Positions 87 to 17,817 of a stretch of DNA of 18,731 nt are shown in pieces. The position numbers were made by a program, and so were the translations under genes. The first letter of the stretch is position 1; each line of letters starts with the position of its first letter. Origin of the DNA: a virus; UHGV virus genome UHGV-0371767; one strand, written 5' to 3'. The notes under the pieces are model-generated. The model was given only the letters and a program-made list of their open reading frames with translations. It did not search any database and was not told the DNA's origin.

Positions 87-638
87 ATGATGCCAGTTAG
101 CCATTATCTCTGCATTTTCATAAACGTTGGTTTGGGAGAAGGCTCTGCATTACCTGTTGGGGTGCCTGTTCCGTGGCCCTCAGCCACTCCGCCAACAGGC
201 TGGCTGAAATGCAACGGAGCAGCTTTTTCTGCTGAAAAATACCCGGAACTGGCAAAGGCTTACCCGACAAATAAATTGCCTGATTTACGCGGTGAATTTA
301 TTCGTGGCTGGGATGACGGACGTGGTATGGATACGGGGAGGGCAATATTATCCGCTCAGGGCGATGCCATACGTAATATCTATGGTGAGTTCAAGACTGT
401 AAACACCGAAAATTATTCAATATGGGAATCAGTAGGCTCGTTTAAGGGGGCAGTAGTGCCTTTGAACCCCTCAACGAACAATAGTTATTTCTCCTTAATC
501 AGAAGTATGGTGACCGAAAGAACAGATGGCGCTGTTTACCCAAAAGTGATTGGCCTTGATGCTTCAAGAATTGTTCCAACTGCAAACGAAAACCGTCCTC
601 GTAACATTGCCTTTAATTATATCGTGAGGGCTGCCTGA
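87..638 (+). CDS. Alternative tail-fibre C-terminal variable domain, silent in this orientation (real coding part starts near 129, inside the invertible segment)
   Basis: ORF shares the GLGE junction peptide with the expressed fibre; it lacks a credible independent start because the first 14 codons lie outside the segment; stop codon overlaps the start of the downstream assembly gene (CTGATG at 633..640). Confidence 0.7.
   Translation: MMPVSHYLCIFINVGLGEGSALPVGVPVPWPSATPPTGWLKCNGAAFSAEKYPELAKAYPTNKLPDLRGEFIRGWDDGRGMDTGRAILSAQGDAIRNIYGEFKTVNTENYSIWESVGSFKGAVVPLNPSTNNSYFSLIRSMVTERTDGAVYPKVIGLDASRIVPTANENRPRNIAFNYIVRAA
115..140. repeat. Invertase crossover site, left (26 bp: two 12-bp half-sites around a 2-bp core), gix/cix/pix-like
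   Basis: Plus strand TTTTCATAAACGTTGGTTTGGGAGAA; its reverse complement TTCTCCCAAACCAACGTTTATGAAAA shares the first 14 nt and 20 of 26 positions with the site at 2099..2124, in inverted orientation. Architecture fits the Hin/Gin site family. Confidence 0.8.
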
Positions 639-1240
639 TGAATAAAGCCGTATTAAATAACGAACTCATTGCCATAAAAGCGGGAGTCATTACCATTTAT
701 AATTATGATGGTGAAACGCGGGAATATATTTCCACATCAACTGAATATCTTGCGGTTGGCGTCGGTATCCCGGCATGTTCTTGTTTAGATGCACCAGTTA
801 CACATAAAGCTGGTTATGCAATCTGCCGTTCTGCAGATTTTAACTCATGGGAATATGTGCCAGACCATCGCGGTGAAATCATCTATAGCACCGAAACAGG
901 AGAATCGAAAGAAATCACAGCTCCGGGTGATTATCCTGAAAATACAACCACTATCGCCCCGTTAACGCCATACGATGAATGGGATGGTGAGAAATGGGTG
1001 ACAGATACTGAGGCACAGCATAGCGCCGCAGTAGGCGCGGCAGAAGCACAGCGTCAGTCACTGATTGATACTGCAATGGCTTCCATTAGTCTGATTCAAC
1101 TGAAATTGCAGGCCGGGCGGAAGCTGATGCAGACAGAAAACACCCGACTTAACGCTGTGCTGGATTACATTGACGCGGTGACGGCAACAGATACCAGCAC
1201 CGCGCCGGACGTCATCTGGCCTGAACTGCCGGAGGCGTAG
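638..1240 (+). CDS. Tail-fibre assembly protein (alternative copy, paired with the silent fibre tail)
   Basis: 200-aa ORF directly following the alternative fibre tail with ATG/TGA overlap; its 3' end converges on and overlaps the other assembly gene (1212..1240). Position and arrangement match Mu U/U' and P2 G-type assembly genes. Confidence 0.7.
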   Translation: MNKAVLNNELIAIKAGVITIYNYDGETREYISTSTEYLAVGVGIPACSCLDAPVTHKAGYAICRSADFNSWEYVPDHRGEIIYSTETGESKEITAPGDYPENTTTIAPLTPYDEWDGEKWVTDTEAQHSAAVGAAEAQRQSLIDTAMASISLIQLKLQAGRKLMQTENTRLNAVLDYIDAVTATDTSTAPDVIWPELPEA

Positions 1241-1655
1241 GCCATTCAATATCTGGCGCACCGGAAGTATCAACCAGTTCCAGTGCGTCCAGATAATCCA
1301 GCCATAAATTATATTGTTCCAGCTCGTCACCTTTCAGACGACCAATAGCAGCTTTGCCAGGCCACTGATGGGTATTGATGTAGGTATTGACTTCTGAAAC
1401 CAAAGATATTTTTTTCATTTCAGCCGTCAACACCTCATCCTCTTTTGAAGGCGGTGGGGAATTAATCCATATTGGTCGTCCTGAACTGTCAGCGCCAATT
1501 TCTTTCCCTTCTGGATGCAGCCCAAGAAATTTCTCATATGTTTCTCGGGTAATTTCAATAACATCATCTGGAAGCGTTCCCGCATCCTCATATTCTGGAA
1601 ACAATTCTTGCAGATAAAAACTTTTACTCCCGGGTGAAAAGAATACTGAGTTCAT
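1212..1655 (-). CDS. G: Tail-fibre assembly protein (expressed copy)
   Basis: 147-aa ORF immediately downstream of the tail-fibre gene (ATG at 1655, fibre stop at 1658..1660), inside the invertible segment; typical fibre/assembly-protein pairing. Confidence 0.75.
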   Translation of the reverse strand: MNSVFFSPGSKSFYLQELFPEYEDAGTLPDDVIEITRETYEKFLGLHPEGKEIGADSSGRPIWINSPPPSKEDEVLTAEMKKISLVSEVNTYINTHQWPGKAAIGRLKGDELEQYNLWLDYLDALELVDTSGAPDIEWPTPPAVQAR

Positions 1656-1657
1656 TC

Positions 1658-3160
1658 TTACCGTCCAATGATTAACGCTGAGACGCTGGTATCTGAAGGA
1701 AAGGCTGCATTCAGTGGTTTGTCGACTTTGAATACAATCGTATTATTCCCCCTGACAGCGGCAAAAGAACAAACCGCCGTCGCGTATGAACCTGTAATAT
1801 TACTGGATACACCACCATAAGCTGTTGTTGAGACCAGAGGGATAACGCCCAGTACCTTATTAGGAAATACAAAGGGCAATGTGGCTGTGGCAATATAAGA
1901 CTTATTAGAACCTGTGATGGCATAAGCATTATCAGTCATTCCATTCATCGCCACTGGGCCGCTTATACTTACAGTAACCATCTGAGTGATTAGCCCGTCA
2001 GGTTGACGAATCACAAAATTTCCATTGCCACCAGTAACCGTCCAGAAAGACATATCAGGGATTTGGTTTTCCCCGTTGCCCACATTCCGTTTTGCTGCTT
2101 CTCCCAAACCAAGGTATGCGAGAAGACCAGTTACATCCTTTCCACTCAAATTAGTCAACGTATTGTCCAGCGGTTGTTTACCTGCCAGCGCATTAAGCAT
2201 TGTCGTGGCAAAGTTCGGATCATTCCCCAGTGCCGCCGCCAGTTCGTTCAGTGTATCCAGTGCCGCAGGTGCAGAACCCACCATTGCTGCAATCGCTGAT
2301 TTCACAAAAGCCGTAGTGGCAATCTGTGTATTGTTGACCGACTGCGCCGCCGTGGGGGCTGTTGGCGTTCCGGTGAGTGCCGGACTCGACAGCGGCGCTT
2401 TCAGTGCCAGCGCATTGTTAATGGTGGTACTGAATTTCGGATCATTGTTAATGGCTACAGCTATTTCTTTCAGCGTGTCCAGCGTGGCTGGCGCACCATT
2501 AATAAGAGCCGTCAGTGCCGCCTGAACAAATGCGGTGGTCGCAAGCTGCGTGGTATTATTCCCCGCCGCTGGCGTTGGCGCTTTGGGGGTTCCGGTAAAC
2601 GTCGGACTTTCTTTGGGTGCATACTGTGAATGCGGGTCCGGTGCGGCAAGATGTTTTGCCATCAGGTCATCCACGTACACCTTCAACTCCAGTGCTTTGT
2701 CATCCACATACTTGCGGGTTGCCAGCACTACAGCAGGGTCTATTTTCAGGGTGATATTGTCCGTGCTGCTGGTTATCAGTACCATGCGCACGGTCTGGGT
2801 GCGCCCGCTGCCTTCAGCCAGTTGCGGCTTATAGCTTTCCGGGCAGTTGCCCACGGCAATCAATGCCCCGGACTCATCAAACAGGCCCACTTCACGGATC
2901 CACCAACCGCCCTCGTTTTCAGGGATCACCTGTTCGGCAATAATCTGGCTGCTGTTCTGCGGGTCGATATAGAGCATATTCAGCGCAGCCCGGCGTTTCT
3001 CATTTACCAGTGCAGTCTGCTTTGCGTCCGGCGTTGGCAATGTTCCGCCGCCATCGCCGACCGCCATATGGGTAATTTTTAACGGCACACCGAGCGCGGC
3101 GGCGCTGGCAAGTTTCGCCGCGCCAATATCCGTCAGCAGGGTATAAAATTTTGTGCTCAT
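1658..3160 (-). CDS. H: Tail-fibre protein (constant N-terminal part 2125..3160 fused to variable C-terminal part inside the invertible segment)
   Basis: 500-aa ORF whose N-terminus (MSTKFYTLLTDIGAAKLA) resembles P2 gpH as recalled; contains two Ala/Thr-rich internal repeats; ATGA overlap with the upstream baseplate gene at 3157..3160. Confidence 0.85.
   Translation of the reverse strand: MSTKFYTLLTDIGAAKLASAAALGVPLKITHMAVGDGGGTLPTPDAKQTALVNEKRRAALNMLYIDPQNSSQIIAEQVIPENEGGWWIREVGLFDESGALIAVGNCPESYKPQLAEGSGRTQTVRMVLITSSTDNITLKIDPAVVLATRKYVDDKALELKVYVDDLMAKHLAAPDPHSQYAPKESPTFTGTPKAPTPAAGNNTTQLATTAFVQAALTALINGAPATLDTLKEIAVAINNDPKFSTTINNALALKAPLSSPALTGTPTAPTAAQSVNNTQIATTAFVKSAIAAMVGSAPAALDTLNELAAALGNDPNFATTMLNALAGKQPLDNTLTNLSGKDVTGLLAYLGLGEAAKRNVGNGENQIPDMSFWTVTGGNGNFVIRQPDGLITQMVTVSISGPVAMNGMTDNAYAITGSNKSYIATATLPFVFPNKVLGVIPLVSTTAYGGVSSNITGSYATAVCSFAAVRGNNTIVFKVDKPLNAAFPSDTSVSALIIGR
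2099..2124. repeat. Invertase crossover site, right (26 bp), inside the tail-fibre gene at the constant/variable junction
   Basis: Plus strand TTCTCCCAAACCAAGGTATGCGAGAA, inverted repeat partner of 115..140. On the minus strand it encodes the GLGE peptide (aa 351-354 of the 500-aa fibre), which is also encoded at 129..140 in the alternative plus-strand fibre ORF. Confidence 0.8.
2171..2593. repeat. Internal tandem duplication (two units of about 70 codons) within the tail-fibre shaft
   Basis: Protein segments around aa 191-259 and 263-330 are clearly similar (…NNTTQLATTAFVQAALTALINGAPATLDTLKEIAVAINNDPKFSTTINNALA… versus …NNTQIATTAFVKSAIAAMVGSAPAALDTLNELAAALGNDPNFATTMLNALA…), with matching DNA repeats. 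Coordinates approximate. Confidence 0.6.
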
Positions 3161-4663: not shown

Positions 4664-5009
4664 TCTCTGCTCCTGTTGATACGGAAAGGGAAACAGGCAC
4701 ACCGTTATTACGCCGCCCGCTCAGCGCCACCACCATTGAACCGTCAAAATTGCTGTTGATGGTGATGGAATCCAGCGTCATCCGTGGCTCCCAGCGACTC
4801 AGCGCCACATACACTGCCGACATGACCTGCAGGCGTAATGCCGGATTTTGTGGCTGGTCTATTAAAACCGACAGGAGGGAACCATATTCCCGGCGGGCAA
4901 TGCGGCTACCCTGCGGTGTCAGCAGAATGTCCCGCACCGACTGGCGCAGATGATCAATATCAGTAATGACTTTGCCGCTGGTATTGTTCATCCCGCTATA
5001 AAGCGTCAT
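4650..5009 (-). CDS. W: Baseplate protein W (gp25-like)
   Basis: 119-aa ORF between V and J in the conserved P2 baseplate order; ATG at 5009 overlaps the V stop. Confidence 0.7.
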   Translation of the reverse strand: MTLYSGMNNTSGKVITDIDHLRQSVRDILLTPQGSRIARREYGSLLSVLIDQPQNPALRLQVMSAVYVALSRWEPRMTLDSITINSNFDGSMVVALSGRRNNGVPVSLSVSTGAENGSD

Positions 5010-5584
5010 ACCGGGCCTCCGGTTGTGTCACCGCCTTTCAGGACGCCAGTATGCTGATGTGCATCAACCACAATTCCGTTAGAACTCATTGCACCGCCGC
5101 CCTGGGTAACACCACCATTGATCACTACTTCGCTGTTAATGCGTGTGCGGTCAGCCTCCAGTACAAACTCACTGGTTTTCAGGGTGATATTGTCGGCAGC
5201 CTCAATGACCATAGATTTGATGCCCCTGACATACCAGCGCCCGGTGGCGGGTTCGTATTCAAACCTGCCACCGTCCGGGTACTCAACCACGTTGCCGTCC
5301 TCAGAGTCAGAAGGTGGTGGAAACTGATTTGAGTAGACAGCAGGTAGGGCAAACGCGGTTTCCAGATTGCCACCCAGGCTGAATAGCACAACCTGCTCGC
5401 CCACAGACGGTTTCCACCAGGTGCGCGATTTGCCCGCGCGCAGTGTCAGCCAGTTAATCCAGTTGGTTTCGAGGTCGCCAGTTTTCACCCGGCAAAGCCA
5501 GTTATCCCGGTCCACTTCGGTGACTACCCCAGTACGGATCAGGTTGGTGATAAGGCGCATGATTTCTGCAAGTTGTGCGTTCAT
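5006..5584 (-). CDS. V: Baseplate central spike protein V
   Basis: 192-aa ORF first in the V-W-J-I-H-G block; ATG at 5582..5584; size close to P2 gpV. Confidence 0.7.
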   Translation of the reverse strand: MNAQLAEIMRLITNLIRTGVVTEVDRDNWLCRVKTGDLETNWINWLTLRAGKSRTWWKPSVGEQVVLFSLGGNLETAFALPAVYSNQFPPPSDSEDGNVVEYPDGGRFEYEPATGRWYVRGIKSMVIEAADNITLKTSEFVLEADRTRINSEVVINGGVTQGGGAMSSNGIVVDAHQHTGVLKGGDTTGGPV

Positions 5585-5624
5585 TCGCTTAGGATGTCGA
5601 TTAGTCGACTTCTTTGGTAGATCA

Positions 5625-5650
5625 TGTAAATTGTGTCATACATGACACAA
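5625..5650. promoter_or_regulatory. Palindromic element with two overlapping TGT-N12-ACA motifs in the V / inserted-gene intergenic region
   Basis: TGT(5625-5627)-N12-ACA(5640-5642) and TGT(5633-5635)-N12-ACA(5648-5650); core inverted repeat TTGTGTCAT-AC-ATGACACAA at 5631..5650. TGT-N12-ACA is the motif I recall for Ogr/Delta activator sites at P2 late promoters, but the spacing to either flanking start codon does not fit the usual -55 position. Confidence 0.35.
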
Positions 5651-5675
5651 TGCTAATTCACGAAAGAGAGTAATA

Positions 5676-6332
5676 ATGATGGTTTTGGATAAAGAGCAAT
5701 ATCAAGAAGTTCTAAACGAACTAGAGAAAAGAAGATATAACTCCAGAAGATCAACCACAATATTCATGACAGCCATGATCGTCATACTTGCTTATATTGC
5801 CACTGCAGTCATTTACGTAGAATTACAGAAAACACATGAAAAGGATAGAATTTCATCGCTGCTAACCGCTGACGGAATTAAATCCGTAGAATCAACAATT
5901 GACAGCTTAAATCGTGCCAGTATTGAGCTTTCTAGAAAACAAACCCAGATAAAAAACACACCTAACTCAACCCCTCAAATTCAAATAAGCGGAATAGCCC
6001 CTTTACCTTCAACACTAAACCAAAAGTCTTCTATAGATAAAATTCTAGAAACAGTAGGACCTATACTAATAGTGTTTTCCGCTATTCTATTTGTTGTGTA
6101 TATACTTCGTCTTTTTATTATATTCTTAAAATACAATATGCAAATGAATAATGATTACGACAATCAAAAAATCTCTTTTCTGCTTTCAGGTGGAGACACG
6201 AAAGAGTTTGGAGAGATACTTCAAAAAGTAAGAGGTCACAATATAAGTTTTGAAAAGACCCCTACTCTTCCGCAAGAAAAAATAATAACTGAACTGGTTG
6301 ATTTAGTTAAATCAATTAAGGGAAAGAATTAA
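5676..6332 (+). CDS. AT-rich inserted gene: predicted inner-membrane protein with two transmembrane helices, unknown function
   Basis: 218-aa ORF with AAGAGAG ribosome-binding site before ATG 5676; hydrophobic stretches around aa 28-50 and 118-148; codon usage and base composition visibly AT-rich compared with flanking phage genes; opposite strand to the late operons; lies where I recall P2 orf30. Confidence 0.7.
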   Translation: MMVLDKEQYQEVLNELEKRRYNSRRSTTIFMTAMIVILAYIATAVIYVELQKTHEKDRISSLLTADGIKSVESTIDSLNRASIELSRKQTQIKNTPNSTPQIQISGIAPLPSTLNQKSSIDKILETVGPILIVFSAILFVVYILRLFIIFLKYNMQMNNDYDNQKISFLLSGGDTKEFGEILQKVRGHNISFEKTPTLPQEKIITELVDLVKSIKGKN

Positions 6333-6775
6333 CTCCTCAACCAGCAAAGTAAAATACTTCGGGTCAAAGACTCTACATCTTGACTAACCCCTAGCAGTTG
6401 TCTTTGAGCGTATAACACCTCCGGCCCCCGACGGCTTACACGATCACGTAAGCCGTAATGATGTACCCGGACAATCCGCTGCACCTGCCCGGTAAACTCG
6501 ACGCTGGCAGAATCAGGATTGGCGGCAGTTTTCAGGTATTTTGTGGTGCGCAGCTTTGCAAACATCTGACGTTTGATGCGCCCCTTTTTACTGCGTGCTG
6601 TTACCCGTCGAGGTTCATAACTGCTGCCATCTGGATTGCGCTGCATCCTGATGTTCTGCTGCTGTGTCCGGCGCAGTTCCTGCGCCAGCTGGCGCATCAT
6701 GCGGCTTCTGGCGGCTGGCTCCAGATTCGCCAGCAAGGCACTCAGCCAGTCGTCCACTTTCTGCAGTTCAGCCAC
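6329..6775 (-). CDS. S: Tail completion protein S
   Basis: 148-aa ORF, position and size match P2 gpS; overlaps R by 8 nt; start appears to be GTG at 6775. Confidence 0.65.
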   Translation of the reverse strand: MAELQKVDDWLSALLANLEPAARSRMMRQLAQELRRTQQQNIRMQRNPDGSSYEPRRVTARSKKGRIKRQMFAKLRTTKYLKTAANPDSASVEFTGQVQRIVRVHHYGLRDRVSRRGPEVLYAQRQLLGVSQDVESLTRSILLCWLRS

Positions 6776-12214: not shown

Positions 12215-12232
12215 TGTACCGACAACCACACA
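12215..12232. promoter_or_regulatory. TGT-N12-ACA box in the divergent O/P intergenic region (candidate Ogr/Delta activator site for the O-operon late promoter)
   Basis: TGT at 12215-12217, 12-nt spacer, ACA at 12230-12232. The centre is about 87 nt upstream of the O start codon, compatible with a -55 site and a roughly 30-nt leader; too close to the P start to serve P. Confidence 0.4.
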
Positions 12233-15112: not shown

Positions 15113-15742
15113 TCATTTCAAATAACGACAATCAGTTTCCCTATCAAGAAAATCAATCATTTCATCATTTGTATAATGTGCATTCAAACCAATTTTAAAC
15201 GTTGGCGGATTAGAATAAAAGACGTCGAAATGATATAATGGATGACGATTTCCATTAGCCCTTTCTTCATCGACATCATATCTAATATAACCATCCTCAT
15301 AAGTTAACAACATTCTAAGAAAAGGCCAAAACCCGGGAATACCTTGATGTTCTTCAATATTTAACAATGGTTCAAAAAAGGCCCAAGAAGAACTATTCAA
15401 ATAAGAGGAGTCATTAATAAAAGAAATGACTTTTGATGTTACAAAACTATCTATACACTCCATTTCTGGACTACTAAATAAAATCTGACCATTAATTTCA
15501 TCAAGAAAAAAAGGAAATGCAAGAGAATAATATTTATTTTCACTAAAGAAGAAAACTCGACTCATCTTTGATATATGAAGTTTCACTCTCCCAACCACAT
15601 TCTGTTCGCATGGTTCTGTATAAACAGAAATTAGTTTGATTAATCTCATCAATATTTCAATAACATCTTTCTTTGTTCGTATTGGCTTAAAGGCCCAGTC
15701 ACACTGAGCCTGCTCCAGACTAAAATAATACTCTTTATTCAC
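15113..15742 (-). CDS. Cargo gene B: 209-aa soluble protein of unknown function, translationally coupled to the upstream helicase-like gene
   Basis: GTG start at 15742..15740 preceded by AGGAG 5 nt upstream and overlapping the upstream stop (GTGA); AT-rich composition; no recognisable catalytic motif. Confidence 0.65.
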   Translation of the reverse strand: MNKEYYFSLEQAQCDWAFKPIRTKKDVIEILMRLIKLISVYTEPCEQNVVGRVKLHISKMSRVFFFSENKYYSLAFPFFLDEINGQILFSSPEMECIDSFVTSKVISFINDSSYLNSSSWAFFEPLLNIEEHQGIPGFWPFLRMLLTYEDGYIRYDVDEERANGNRHPLYHFDVFYSNPPTFKIGLNAHYTNDEMIDFLDRETDCRYLK

Positions 15743-17817
15743 TTCGACTCCTGAAGCATTATTTCATAGTTGAACCGAACAAGAGTAGTAATTTTATCGA
15801 CATCAAAAGAATCAGGCATGATTGTTTTTACTGTATTATACAGGGATGTACGAAATATCGGCTCAATCTGTAAGTCATCGAAGACCTTTGTAACCAAATC
15901 ATAATGAGATATATTTTTCTCATCATATTTGATTGTTGTTCTTATTTTTGAAATAACTTCTCTCGGTGGAACGTTAATATCCATATAACCATGCTCATTA
16001 ATAGCATCTAACCCCTTTTCTATCTCATTCTGTAAGTCTTTATTCCCATCCCCCAGAAGCAAATATGATTTAATAAAGGAACGAGTTAACATCATATATA
16101 GTGAATTTCGATAAGAATGGCTCTTGATAATATCACGAGTAACACAGATAACAAAAGGAAACTCCAACCCTTTTACATGGTTTTTATTACTTATGAATAA
16201 CGTATCTTTAATTTTTTCTTTTGTTTCATATGCCTTATTAACCTTCCACCCTAATAATCTAGGCACGCTCAATTCAAGTCTGTCTGCGATTTTAAATATA
16301 GTCTTAGCCTGATCAATAAAGATGATACCAATATCATCAGCCAAAACAGTAGGATTCTCCTCCTTAATTTTACGGAGTATACCCAAAATATTCTCTTCTT
16401 CAGTTTCATATGTGGAATTAATTAATTCCACACTATGTATTTTTGCATCCGTTACATCTTCAAATCTTCTTAGTGGCTCTCTCTTTAATCTTAATTTACC
16501 TTTTACCGATTCATCAACTATATAACCGCAGGCTTCCCATTCATTATTCATTAACCAAGTTAATGGTTCTTCTTCAAATAGCCCCATACCTAAACCATGA
16601 GCAAACATCAATGTCCTTGGATCTGTTCGGTAGCATTTACTTAGAAGAAAGTCTGGCTGTATCTCATTAGAGATATTAGTATCAAATATACTTTGAAATA
16701 TATCACCAGCAACATAAATAGTATCACGAGTTACCAGCTCGCAAAGCTCAATGAAGCTTGATGGGAAATCCTGACTTTCATCTATTAACATAAAGTCAAA
16801 GCAATGCTTAAATTCATTGCTTGGCAACTTTTTTAGTTCATCCAACGCAATTCTACATACTTTATCGAAAGTCATCACATAGCTAAAGCGATAGAAACTT
16901 AATCCATAATATTCACATATATATCTATATGCGCCAGAGTTACCGTCATATTGAGAACCCCATGCATTAACACACCAAAGTCTTTCATTCCAGCTAATCT
17001 GCTGCTCGACCTTCATAAAGTTGAAAAACTCTGGAATTCTCTTTCTCATATTGTCTGCCAATATTTTATTATGGCACGTAAACATTATTTTACTATTTAA
17101 ATTCTCCTTATCCAAATATATTTCCTTTAACTTATGAAGCAATAGTTCAGTCTTACCAGTACCTGATAATCCTTGAATAACAACTTTTTTCTTATCAAAT
17201 TTTTGGTATACAAACCTTGTCTGATCTCCATCAAACAAAATTATCTTTTGCTTAACCTTGTCAAGTATATTATCTGGCACATTGCCTTTAACTTTATCAA
17301 TATTATTGATACTTCCTGTTAAGAGAGAGATAATTAACTCACTCTTTTTAGCCAGAACACCATCAATAATTTTAATTTCATCAAAAAACTTATCAAGATT
17401 ACCGAAACTAAAATCAGCGTATGAGCACTCAGTAACAAGTTTATCTTTCCACGCTCGAGGCCTACCAATTGTATCTTTATAATTGTATTTATCTGATAAG
17501 GAACCTAAATCCTCTATAAAATCCTCTATAAAATTTTGTATACCATCAACATCATCACTAAAAGCAACGAACGCTAATTGGTATCCTGGGCTTAATATAA
17601 TAAGAACATCGTCTCTATTATATTTATATTTATTTTCCCCTAAGGGATTCATTATTGCATAAATCTGCATTTGATGAGTATTTGCATACTCTTCAACAGA
17701 GTTCAAAAAATCAGCATTTGTATCATTTTTTAAATCAGGCTGGATATAAAAGAAACTGCTCATAGAAAGCCTTAACGAGGTGGATAAAAACTTATATGTT
17801 GTTTCTAAAATTAGCAT
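15739..17817 (-). CDS. Cargo gene A: SF1 helicase-like P-loop ATPase (UvrD/RecD/DUF2075-like motifs) with an unassigned N-terminal domain of about 200 aa
   Basis: 692-aa ORF. Walker A GLSGTGKT (aa 216-223), motif II LIDESQD (aa 344-350), motif III VAGDIFQS (aa 369-376), motif IV CYRT (aa 395-398), motif VI-like YMMLTRS near the C-terminus. Strongly AT-rich. The true start may be the internal ATG at 17763 (AAGG ribosome-binding site), giving 674 aa. Confidence 0.75.
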   Translation of the reverse strand: MLILETTYKFLSTSLRLSMSSFFYIQPDLKNDTNADFLNSVEEYANTHQMQIYAIMNPLGENKYKYNRDDVLIILSPGYQLAFVAFSDDVDGIQNFIEDFIEDLGSLSDKYNYKDTIGRPRAWKDKLVTECSYADFSFGNLDKFFDEIKIIDGVLAKKSELIISLLTGSINNIDKVKGNVPDNILDKVKQKIILFDGDQTRFVYQKFDKKKVVIQGLSGTGKTELLLHKLKEIYLDKENLNSKIMFTCHNKILADNMRKRIPEFFNFMKVEQQISWNERLWCVNAWGSQYDGNSGAYRYICEYYGLSFYRFSYVMTFDKVCRIALDELKKLPSNEFKHCFDFMLIDESQDFPSSFIELCELVTRDTIYVAGDIFQSIFDTNISNEIQPDFLLSKCYRTDPRTLMFAHGLGMGLFEEEPLTWLMNNEWEACGYIVDESVKGKLRLKREPLRRFEDVTDAKIHSVELINSTYETEEENILGILRKIKEENPTVLADDIGIIFIDQAKTIFKIADRLELSVPRLLGWKVNKAYETKEKIKDTLFISNKNHVKGLEFPFVICVTRDIIKSHSYRNSLYMMLTRSFIKSYLLLGDGNKDLQNEIEKGLDAINEHGYMDINVPPREVISKIRTTIKYDEKNISHYDLVTKVFDDLQIEPIFRTSLYNTVKTIMPDSFDVDKITTLVRFNYEIMLQESK

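Follow-up and report, generated by a model that had tools for sequence, protein, structure and literature searches.

A phrog_2611 membrane-protein gene in the V-S (orf30) slot of a P2-like prophage: an exchangeable accessory gene and candidate superinfection-exclusion factor

The P2-like prophage of Escherichia coli represented by UHGV virus genome UHGV-0371767 (18,731 nucleotides (nt); "the window" below means this whole stretch) carries an additional open reading frame (ORF) between the baseplate spike gene V and the tail-completion gene S. This ORF, here called the cargo gene, runs from 5676 to 6332 on the plus strand, starts with ATG, ends with TAA and encodes 218 amino acids (aa). It specifies a predicted two-pass membrane protein of the family phrog_2611 and very probably represents an accessory gene, or "moron", in a variable slot; superinfection exclusion is the function that we tentatively prefer for it. 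The slot and its borders are made up as follows (GC, G+C content; dN/dS, ratio of nonsynonymous to synonymous substitution rates).

5006-5584, minus strand: gpV baseplate spike gene, the left border of the slot (ORF list, RefSeq, and Pfam Phage_base_V on an orthologue)
5585-5675, no strand: V/cargo intergenic region, 36% GC, holding the leftward late promoter PV
5664-5670, plus strand: Shine-Dalgarno-like AAGAGAG, 5 nt 5' of the cargo ATG
5676-6332, plus strand: cargo gene, two-pass membrane protein, phrog_2611 member (ORF list, family match, dN/dS)
6329-6775, minus strand: gpS tail-completion gene, the right border of the slot (ORF list, RefSeq)

gpV is the first gene of the V-W-J-I-H-G late operon and gpS the last gene of the O late operon. 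The cargo ORF has 33.3% GC, with 27% GC at third codon positions (GC3), and sliding-window values are 31-37% within the gene as against 54-60% in V and S. An earlier reading made from the letters of the window alone (the sequence-only reading) had described a 218-aa plus-strand gene between V and S, AT-rich against a GC-rich backbone and with its own ribosome-binding site, and the ORF list, the base composition and the AAGAGAG element agree with it on each of these points. Its starting position, 5585, is the first base after the gpV start codon, whereas the ORF itself begins at 5676. A 99.9% identical E. coli locus in RefSeq is annotated alike, the cargo product being the hypothetical protein WP_085453643.1. 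The stop codon of the cargo gene (6330-6332) overlaps that of gpS (6329-6331) in the sequence TTAA at 6329-6332, leaving no space for a terminator, and the region 3' of the cargo gene folds no better than shuffled sequence (z = -1.4). A Rfam scan of the whole window returned no RNA family.

The cargo protein is a full-length member of phrog_2611 (PHROGs v4): residues 6-211 match positions 5-218 of the 230-position profile with E = 4.2e-32 and 113 bits. PHROGs gives this family no function label, and membership is therefore silent on mechanism. A HMMER search of 1.84 billion representative proteins retrieved 49 clusters at E <= 1e-3 and 26 at E <= 1e-10; the family is genuine yet small. Its named members come from Escherichia, Salmonella, Klebsiella, Enterobacter, Citrobacter, Providencia, Edwardsiella, and Dryocola, and nearly all are labelled "hypothetical protein", one Citrobacter member being named "C40 family peptidase". 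The exact cargo protein is present on 87 contigs, in records that bear the names E. coli and Salmonella Livingstone, and the complete genomes that carry the gene come from hospital, human, wolf, and chicken meat sources. Comparison with a 77%-identical relative from a Logan assembly (locus L135) gave a dN/dS of 0.11 (dN 0.16; dS 1.47, saturated), with regional values of 0.22 for the loop between the two membrane helices and 0.06 for the second helix. Because dS is saturated against this closest relative with DNA, these ratios can speak for purifying selection only. The cargo ORF is a real gene and not a chance frame in AT-rich DNA. A text search of the literature found no paper that mentions phrog_2611, and literature searches found no functional study of this family or of orf30-slot genes; the Salmonella prophage transcriptome study PMC7067206 held nothing usable on the V-S slot.

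In the P2 record, the gene annotated between S and V is orf30 (261 aa, "nonessential"), which runs counter to the late operons. The suggestion in the sequence-only reading that the insert lies at the P2 orf30 locus and runs antisense to the late operons is thus correct. The product of orf30 (NP_046770) resembles the cargo protein in several respects: its gene fills this slot as well, with S on one side and the PV activator site and V on the other, has the same orientation, is likewise AT-rich (34% GC), and encodes several hydrophobic helices. Unlike the cargo protein, however, Orf30 has three hydrophobic segments and no conserved C-terminal tail, and P2 has a predicted terminator between S and orf30 where the two stop codons overlap here. 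Homology between the two proteins was rejected, since the best BLASTP match has E = 0.52 over 30 residues of transmembrane (TM) helix and the hhalign probability is 0.5%. The orf30 locus has been listed, with no function given, as one of three regions of P2-like phages with horizontally acquired genes (PMC3091744), and the R18C paper describes a different ORF at the orf30 position (PMC6823313).

Occupancy of the slot was judged by the number of nt that separate the V start codon from the S stop codon in 80 loci collected via gpS and 41 collected via the family. The empty slot is 68 nt long and was found in 82 of 118 loci, a non-random set in which the 80 S-matched loci are near-identical relatives; occupied slots span 700-2080 nt. 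A second sample was drawn from evenly spaced complete E. coli genomes with a probe of V joined to S. About one in five complete E. coli genomes matched this probe, and among the 42 rows that matched both genes the slot was empty in 33 and occupied in nine. The occupants are the cargo gene, a 42%-identical member of its family (L127), a second family in which two N-terminal helices precede a soluble C-terminal part (L128 and L129), a 176-aa soluble protein (L130), and, in four rows, DUF6216 proteins. All of them are encoded on the plus strand at 30-36% GC. At least five AT-rich genes of unrelated sequence, most of them for membrane proteins, occur singly in the slot, and the comparison of occupants across P2-like prophages that the sequence-only reading had proposed thus reveals a variable slot, mostly empty and filled with unrelated cargos. 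The DUF6216, L128/L129, and L130 types share with the cargo gene its slot, strand, single-gene layout, and base composition, and all occupants except the L130 type are predicted membrane proteins; the three types are nevertheless unrelated to the cargo protein in sequence and differ from it in how many TM helices they have and in how these are arranged. Assignment of the cargo protein itself to DUF6216 (PF19723) was rejected: the family is absent from the Pfam scan at E <= 10, and hhalign against a DUF6216 occupant gives 0.1%.

Among 5426 complete E. coli genomes the cargo gene was found in three, together with one copy disrupted by an insertion sequence of the IS3 family. The gene is therefore not a core gene of P2-like phages, being rare in E. 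coli (3-4 of 5426 genomes) and lying in a slot that is empty in 33 of 42 prophages; the sequence-only reading had named conservation as a structural core gene in all P2-like phages as the outcome that would count against it. Two marks of a moron were observed, namely patchy presence in otherwise collinear genomes and deviant base composition. As to the third, a promoter and terminator of its own, there is no promoter above the scan threshold and no terminator-like site, and there are two conserved sub-threshold candidates. That the cargo is an accessory gene in a variable slot is very probable. In the disrupted copy (L003, 2770-4636; E. coli GF66.2, NZ_CP172145.1), the IS3-family element lies between the PV region and the cargo gene and leaves an annotated remnant of 185 aa, which implies that the gene is dispensable to host and phage there. 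In the laboratory E. coli B derivatives NEBExpress (NZ_CP053599.1) and B-ZidR (NZ_CP117469.1), the slot of the P2-like prophage is filled by a DUF6216 protein, so that a standard laboratory host already contains one of the occupants.

The region between V and the cargo gene contains a perfect palindrome and several weaker elements.

5596-5609, no strand: small palindrome GTCGATTAGTCGAC in the PV core region, recurring in several family-carrying loci
5605-5632, plus strand: putative sigma-70 promoter, TCGACT, 16 nt, TAAATT, with 8 of 12 matches
5630-5651, no strand: perfect dyad ATTGTGTCAT-AC-ATGACACAAT (10 + 10 nt, 2-nt spacer), containing TGT-N12-ACA at 5632-5649
5643-5651, plus strand: candidate extended -10 element TGACACAAT in the right arm of the dyad

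In P2, the four late promoters that depend on Ogr share TGT-N12-ACA as their consensus (PMC3931495, which cites Christie & Calendar 1985 and Julien & Calendar 1995). The centre of the dyad is 56 nt from the V start codon, and the P2 record has a pV activator binding site centred 55.5 nt from the V start, a position that it also marks as the start of transcription. A second match to the motif, at 12215-12232, is in the intergenic region of O and P, the expected site of PO and PP. The motif is not rarer than chance in the window (5 found, 4.8 expected), and the argument for a PV site therefore rests on position and conservation. The dyad keeps one and the same spacing from V across all empty and occupied slots, irrespective of which cargo is present, and its presence in empty slots at this fixed distance implies that it serves the V operon on the opposite strand. 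Judged from its sequence and position, the dyad is an Ogr/B/Delta-type activator site of PV. The palindromic element that had been attributed to the cargo gene in the sequence-only reading thus exists and is perfect, but it is not the gene's own, being a PV site that is kept in empty slots. A CRP-like site and an operator of the cargo gene were likewise considered and rejected, because the palindrome fits TGT-N12-ACA and the PV distance of P2 and is present in empty slots. Recognizing it as the PV activator site avoids mis-annotation.

The cargo ATG lies 24 nt beyond the dyad, whose centre is 35 nt from it, so that the promoter of the cargo gene must overlap the PV control region; whichever it is, the rightward promoter would be situated within 5585-5675. 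Two candidates can be named. At the offset of the dyad right arm, the sequence [C/T/A]ACAAT is found in 19 of 27 distinct upstream regions of occupied slots, whereas the empty-slot variants (n = 9) have ACAAA, or in one case ACAAC, at the same offset and so lack the critical final T; this contrast is suggestive only, since independent lineages are few. The pair TCGACT-16 nt-TAAATT is kept in about 10 of the 27 distinct upstream regions and falls below the threshold of the promoter scan. On the other side of the gene, the overlapping stop codons and the undetected terminator imply that late transcripts of the O operon should run antisense through the cargo gene. The overlap with the dyad offers a testable idea on how expression of the cargo could be coupled to the lytic switch.

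Searches with tblastn for J, W, V, S, and R on the collected loci placed a family member between V and S, in the same orientation, in at least 34 loci; phrog_2611 favours the V-S slot, and most of its members are there. In a group of four loci (L008-L011), J is 98-99% identical and V and S are 86-91% identical while the cargo is 42% identical, and flanks so much more alike than the cargo indicate that alleles of the family are swapped as cassettes. Traces of such exchange are visible in three loci, all viral contigs, in which the cargo gene is accompanied by its own copy of the dyad. In L012 (5540-6020), a partial S-derived segment precedes a second dyad and the cargo gene; in L013 and L015 (4700-7100), the order is V, PV dyad, S, R, a lysC fragment, a second dyad with the cargo gene, S, and R. 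The arrangement of these duplicated S-derived segments marks them as a footprint of recombination between P2-like genomes. Because the junction falls at the left edge of the second dyad, the shared palindrome may be the recombination point for cassette exchange. The stretch from the V start codon to the dyad (5585-5629) is GC-rich in empty-slot phages (AGGGAAAGGTTGCC...) and AT-rich, with GTCGA-N4-TCGAC, in family carriers. This unlikeness of the PV core region suggests that the swapped cassette includes the PV core promoter as well.

Members outside the V-S slot are also at accessory positions of mobile elements. One (L007) is flanked by a tail-fibre gene and smpB where a Providencia prophage ends. 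Two others (L039 and L040) are beside CI-like (S24 peptidase/helix-turn-helix) and CII-like genes, and in both the 3' end of the member is overlapped by a DUF4365/restriction endonuclease (REase)-like gene (the pair is at 5962-7498 in L040). The DUF4365 gene of L040 matches the Argonaute-associated REase domain of PADLOC with E = 1.6e-8, and the member and the DUF4365 gene may form a two-gene unit. A distant member (P0032) in Edwardsiella piscicida CP084429.1 (L132, 5761-12603) belongs to a small integrase-AlpA-Bro-N-X-HicB-D5 primase island, which looks like a phage satellite. The island interrupts another prophage, separating its portal gene from the protease/capsid genes.

The protein can be divided into five segments.

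5676-5756, plus strand: N-terminal helix, residues 1-27, ending in KRRYNSRR; predicted cytoplasmic, with the moderately conserved motif ILxxLxxRAxxxR
5757-5819, plus strand: TM1, residues 28-48, from hydrophobicity; poorly conserved (identity 0.20)
5820-6056, plus strand: variable loop, residues 49-127, predicted periplasmic (identity 0.16)
6057-6128, plus strand: TM2, residues 128-151, conserved (identity 0.40), with F139 and F150 invariant
6129-6329, plus strand: helical C-terminal tail, residues 152-218, conserved and predicted cytoplasmic

Kyte-Doolittle averages over 19-residue windows locate the hydrophobic helices at about residues 28-48 (up to 2.4) and 128-151 (up to 2.8). The loop between them is 79 aa long and about one third Ser, Thr, or Gln, and the tail comprises 67 aa, so that the two TM helices, the Ser/Thr/Gln-rich loop, and the C-terminal domain described in the sequence-only reading were all recovered. 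The basic N-terminus of that description applies to the membrane-proximal KRRYNSRR alone; residues 1-27 as a whole contain six Lys or Arg against five Asp or Glu. Counts of Lys and Arg flanking the helices favour an N-in, C-in orientation in most full-length members. An AlphaFold 2 (AF2) model built on a 38-sequence alignment is all-helical, with a mean predicted local distance difference test score (pLDDT) of 73.6; confidence is about 90 at residues 1-50 and 120-190, and within the loop a helix at residues 65-93 is followed by a low-confidence linker rich in Ser, Thr, Pro, and Gln (below 50 at 94-116). An earlier AF2 run on four sequences was poor (pLDDT 54). These features make it probable that the cargo product is an inner-membrane protein that crosses the membrane twice, with both termini in the cytoplasm.

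Conservation is distributed very unevenly over these segments. Mean pairwise identity among 38 members is 0.27 in the N-terminal helix, 0.20 in TM1, 0.16 in the loop, 0.40 in TM2, and 0.43 in the C-terminal tail. Four residues (F139, F150, Y153, and P196) are invariant, and the tail carries the motif KY(N/Y)MQ..DY(D/E)NQK...LS.G...F...L..LR..NI.FEKTP.LPQEKII. More distant relatives (E between 1e-7 and 1e-4) follow the same plan, with an N-terminal L..R.RA helix, TM1, a long coiled-coil loop, TM2, and a tail containing RY....Y..Q.DAL....FGK.P. The N-terminal helix, TM2, and the tail may accordingly be seen as one cytoplasmic and membrane module. The loop, on the other hand, varies in sequence, in length (66-137 aa among full-length members), and even in inserted domains. 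Six homologues (P0020, P0023, P0024, P0025, P0028, and P0054) have in their loop a truncated NlpC/P60 segment, PGDLVFF...HVGVYLGN, which covers positions ~26-100 of the 105 of PF00877 and misses the N-terminal part of the model. A remnant of this peptidoglycan hydrolase type fits a periplasmic location of the loop. The catalytic Cys of NlpC/P60 enzymes sits in the N-terminal part of the Pfam model, and the name "C40 family peptidase" of the Citrobacter member is probably a functional mis-annotation.

A horizontally exchanged accessory gene of the prophage that acts in superinfection exclusion is the reading that we prefer, tentatively and at somewhat less than an even call, because the variable part of the protein would face the tail tip or the ejection proteins of an incoming phage. 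The pattern of conservation resembles that of an arms race, identity being far lower in the loop (0.16) than in TM2 (0.40) and the tail (0.43). The slot is where two transcription units meet, the O late operon ending with gpS on one side and the V operon with its PV promoter on the other. According to this model, the cargo protein would be made in the lysogen, from a promoter that probably overlaps the PV activator dyad, and would exclude superinfecting phages at the cytoplasmic membrane. On the periplasmic side, the variable loop would recognize or obstruct the tail-tip, tape-measure, or ejection proteins of the incoming phage, while the conserved module would anchor the protein, oligomerize, or bind a conserved host inner-membrane partner, with the result that genome entry is blocked. 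During lytic growth, binding of the late activator and antisense read-through from the O operon would switch the cargo gene off. An anti-phage role of whatever kind comes close to an even call for this protein; a block at the entry step specifically is doubtful.

P22 SieA, HK97 gp15, and T4 Imm are inner-membrane proteins, and SieA and gp15 block DNA entry. The preferred model likens the cargo protein to these small proteins encoded by prophages or phages. Comparison with SieA by hhalign and the Pfam scan for exclusion families revealed no homology, however, and the cargo protein is larger (218 aa), with a long variable loop between its helices and a conserved cytoplasmic tail. gp15 of HK97 (PMC3430355) and SieA of P22 (PMC10883804) are expressed from the prophage and exclude superinfecting phages, and both are morons that adjoin virion genes, as their annotated records also show.

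Several results weigh against superinfection exclusion. The cargo protein matched no family of PADLOC-DB v2 at E <= 10, and Pfam (E <= 10) and NCBIfam gave nothing above threshold and no exclusion family, the sub-threshold matches to DUF2721, PspC, and anti-sigma factors being rejected as noise from the transmembrane helices. The hhalign probability against P22 SieA is 2%; a sequence-profile search of the PDB with the 38-sequence alignment produced no match at E <= 1; and fold searches returned generic helical hairpins and nothing informative. The remote homology search suggested by the sequence-only reading thus brought no characterized relative from Pfam, NCBIfam, PADLOC, the PDB, or the fold searches. 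None of the other cargos of the slot matched a defence family either, which weakens any argument by association. Rousset et al. 2022 (PMC9122126) make no mention of orf30, and the V-S slot is not among the P2 hotspots listed in the accessible portion of the iLund4u preprint. The scans for a promoter upstream of the cargo gene (none above threshold) and for a terminator 3' of it (no terminator-like site) point the same way. Finally, the variability of the loop could reflect relaxed constraint instead of diversifying selection (dN/dS 0.22, at saturated dS).

An unlikely alternative is lysogenic conversion that has nothing to do with phage defence, the protein acting on envelope physiology, for example in stress tolerance, immunity to bacteriocins or contact-dependent toxins, or colonization. 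Such a gene would have the same moron signature (AT-rich, patchy, on the opposite strand), the truncated NlpC/P60 inserts in the loop hint at contact with the cell wall, and the distribution of the exact protein (87 contigs, with carriers from hospital, human, wolf, and chicken meat) is in keeping with it. Nevertheless, Pfam and NCBIfam scans revealed no similarity to known immunity, virulence, or stress proteins, the family is nearly confined to accessory slots of phages, prophages, and satellites, and the IS3-disrupted copy shows that a host can do without the gene.

Somewhat less likely again is abortive infection, in which a latent membrane-disrupting or pore-forming protein would sense a phage product through its tail and kill the infected lysogen by depolarization before phage release. 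In known defence systems, membrane proteins are commonly seen as suicide effectors (Rousset 2022, PMC9122126). Conservation is highest in TM2, where an Arg is found, and in the cytoplasmic tail next to it, as would be expected of an effector core, and the overlap of the L039/L040 member with a DUF4365/REase-like gene that has a PADLOC match recalls a two-gene defence operon. However, single-gene systems usually vary the sensor and keep the effector, and the variable part here is a predicted periplasmic loop, which is unlikely to sense intracellular phage products; moreover, the protein matches no PADLOC model and has only two transmembrane helices.

It is improbable that the gene is an accessory of the lytic cycle, activated late through the dyad and tuning the timing of lysis, the release of tails or baseplates, or the exclusion of sister virions. 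The gene is among lysis and tail genes, only 24 nt separate the dyad from its ATG, and in L012, L013, and L015 dyad and cargo have moved together. Late activation of the cargo via the dyad was nevertheless rejected, since the dyad centre is 35 nt from the ATG and the -55 geometry of P2 late promoters would make rightward transcription begin within the ORF. Empty slots have this dyad too, and it serves V there; most relatives have no gene here, which shows that lysis and assembly can proceed without one; late expression would be opposed by antisense transcription reading through from the O operon, for which no terminator was found; and the prophage already has a complement of lysis genes (in the RefSeq locus an HP1-family holin, endolysin, LysB, and LysC). 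A holin or antiholin was also considered and set aside in view of the length of 218 aa (holins have about 70-150 aa and closely spaced helices), the 79 aa between the helices, the absence of any holin family from the Pfam and NCBIfam matches, and the HP1-family holin already present. The chance that the ORF is a spurious or decaying, functionless frame in AT-rich junk DNA is negligible: its annotation as merely a hypothetical protein and the IS3 interruption of one copy would agree with this, but the reading is effectively refuted by the conservation pattern, that is, by the dN/dS of 0.11 (at saturated dS), by full-length homologues of 28-77% identity in the same slot in Escherichia, Klebsiella, Enterobacter, and Dryocola, by further relatives in Citrobacter, Providencia, and Edwardsiella, and by the conserved C-terminal motif and the PHROG match (E = 4e-32).

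P2-like prophages are among the commonest in Enterobacterales, and many validated defence systems are known from two of their cargo slots. That the orf30 slot is variable and that its occupants are of the accessory-gene kind is already known and would not surprise a P2 specialist. The occupants found here have no assigned function and go unrecognized by current defence catalogues, and phrog_2611 turns up in the slot repeatedly, in several genera, its core conserved and its loop free to vary. The slot is thus a cheap and well-defined target for plasmid-based phage-challenge screens. We consider it unlikely that three propositions hold jointly, namely that the V-S slot is an overlooked fourth hotspot, that phrog_2611 is a new class of exclusion proteins, and that the dyad acts as a toggle. 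If they did, the slot would specialize in exclusion factors that are encoded by single genes, are mostly embedded in the membrane, and belong to at least five families unrelated to each other and absent from PADLOC; in phrog_2611 a hypervariable periplasmic loop would set the target and TM2 with the cytoplasmic tail would execute the block; and a promoter in the right arm of the dyad (TGnCACAAT) would form with the activator site a one-site toggle between lysogeny and lysis, at which Ogr turns PV on and the exclusion gene off.

The old/tin and Z/fun slots of P2 are other operon boundaries that gather AT-rich acquired genes, as set out in PMC3091744 and in the iLund4u preprint. They contain experimentally validated and often multi-gene defence systems, whereas the V-S slot has single genes, none validated and none matching PADLOC. 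In the window, the old/tin hotspot beside the portal gene Q is occupied by a block of 30-39% GC (15113-17817, minus strand, with AT-rich sequence on to 18731). It encodes a 692-aa UvrD-like superfamily 1 (SF1) helicase (Pfam UvrD_C_2, UvrD-helicase, and AAA_19; PADLOC "Helicase" PDLC03002, E = 3e-28); a protein of 209 aa comes next and has no matches. The block is probably a defence cassette. At the other end of the window (87-1655), the tail-fibre region is laid out like an invertible segment. A fibre fragment with a Collar domain (87-638) and a gene for tail-fibre assembly (638-1240), both on the plus strand, face a second assembly gene (1212-1655) and gpH (1658-3160) on the minus strand, and in the RefSeq locus a recombinase family gene lies directly past this end of the window.

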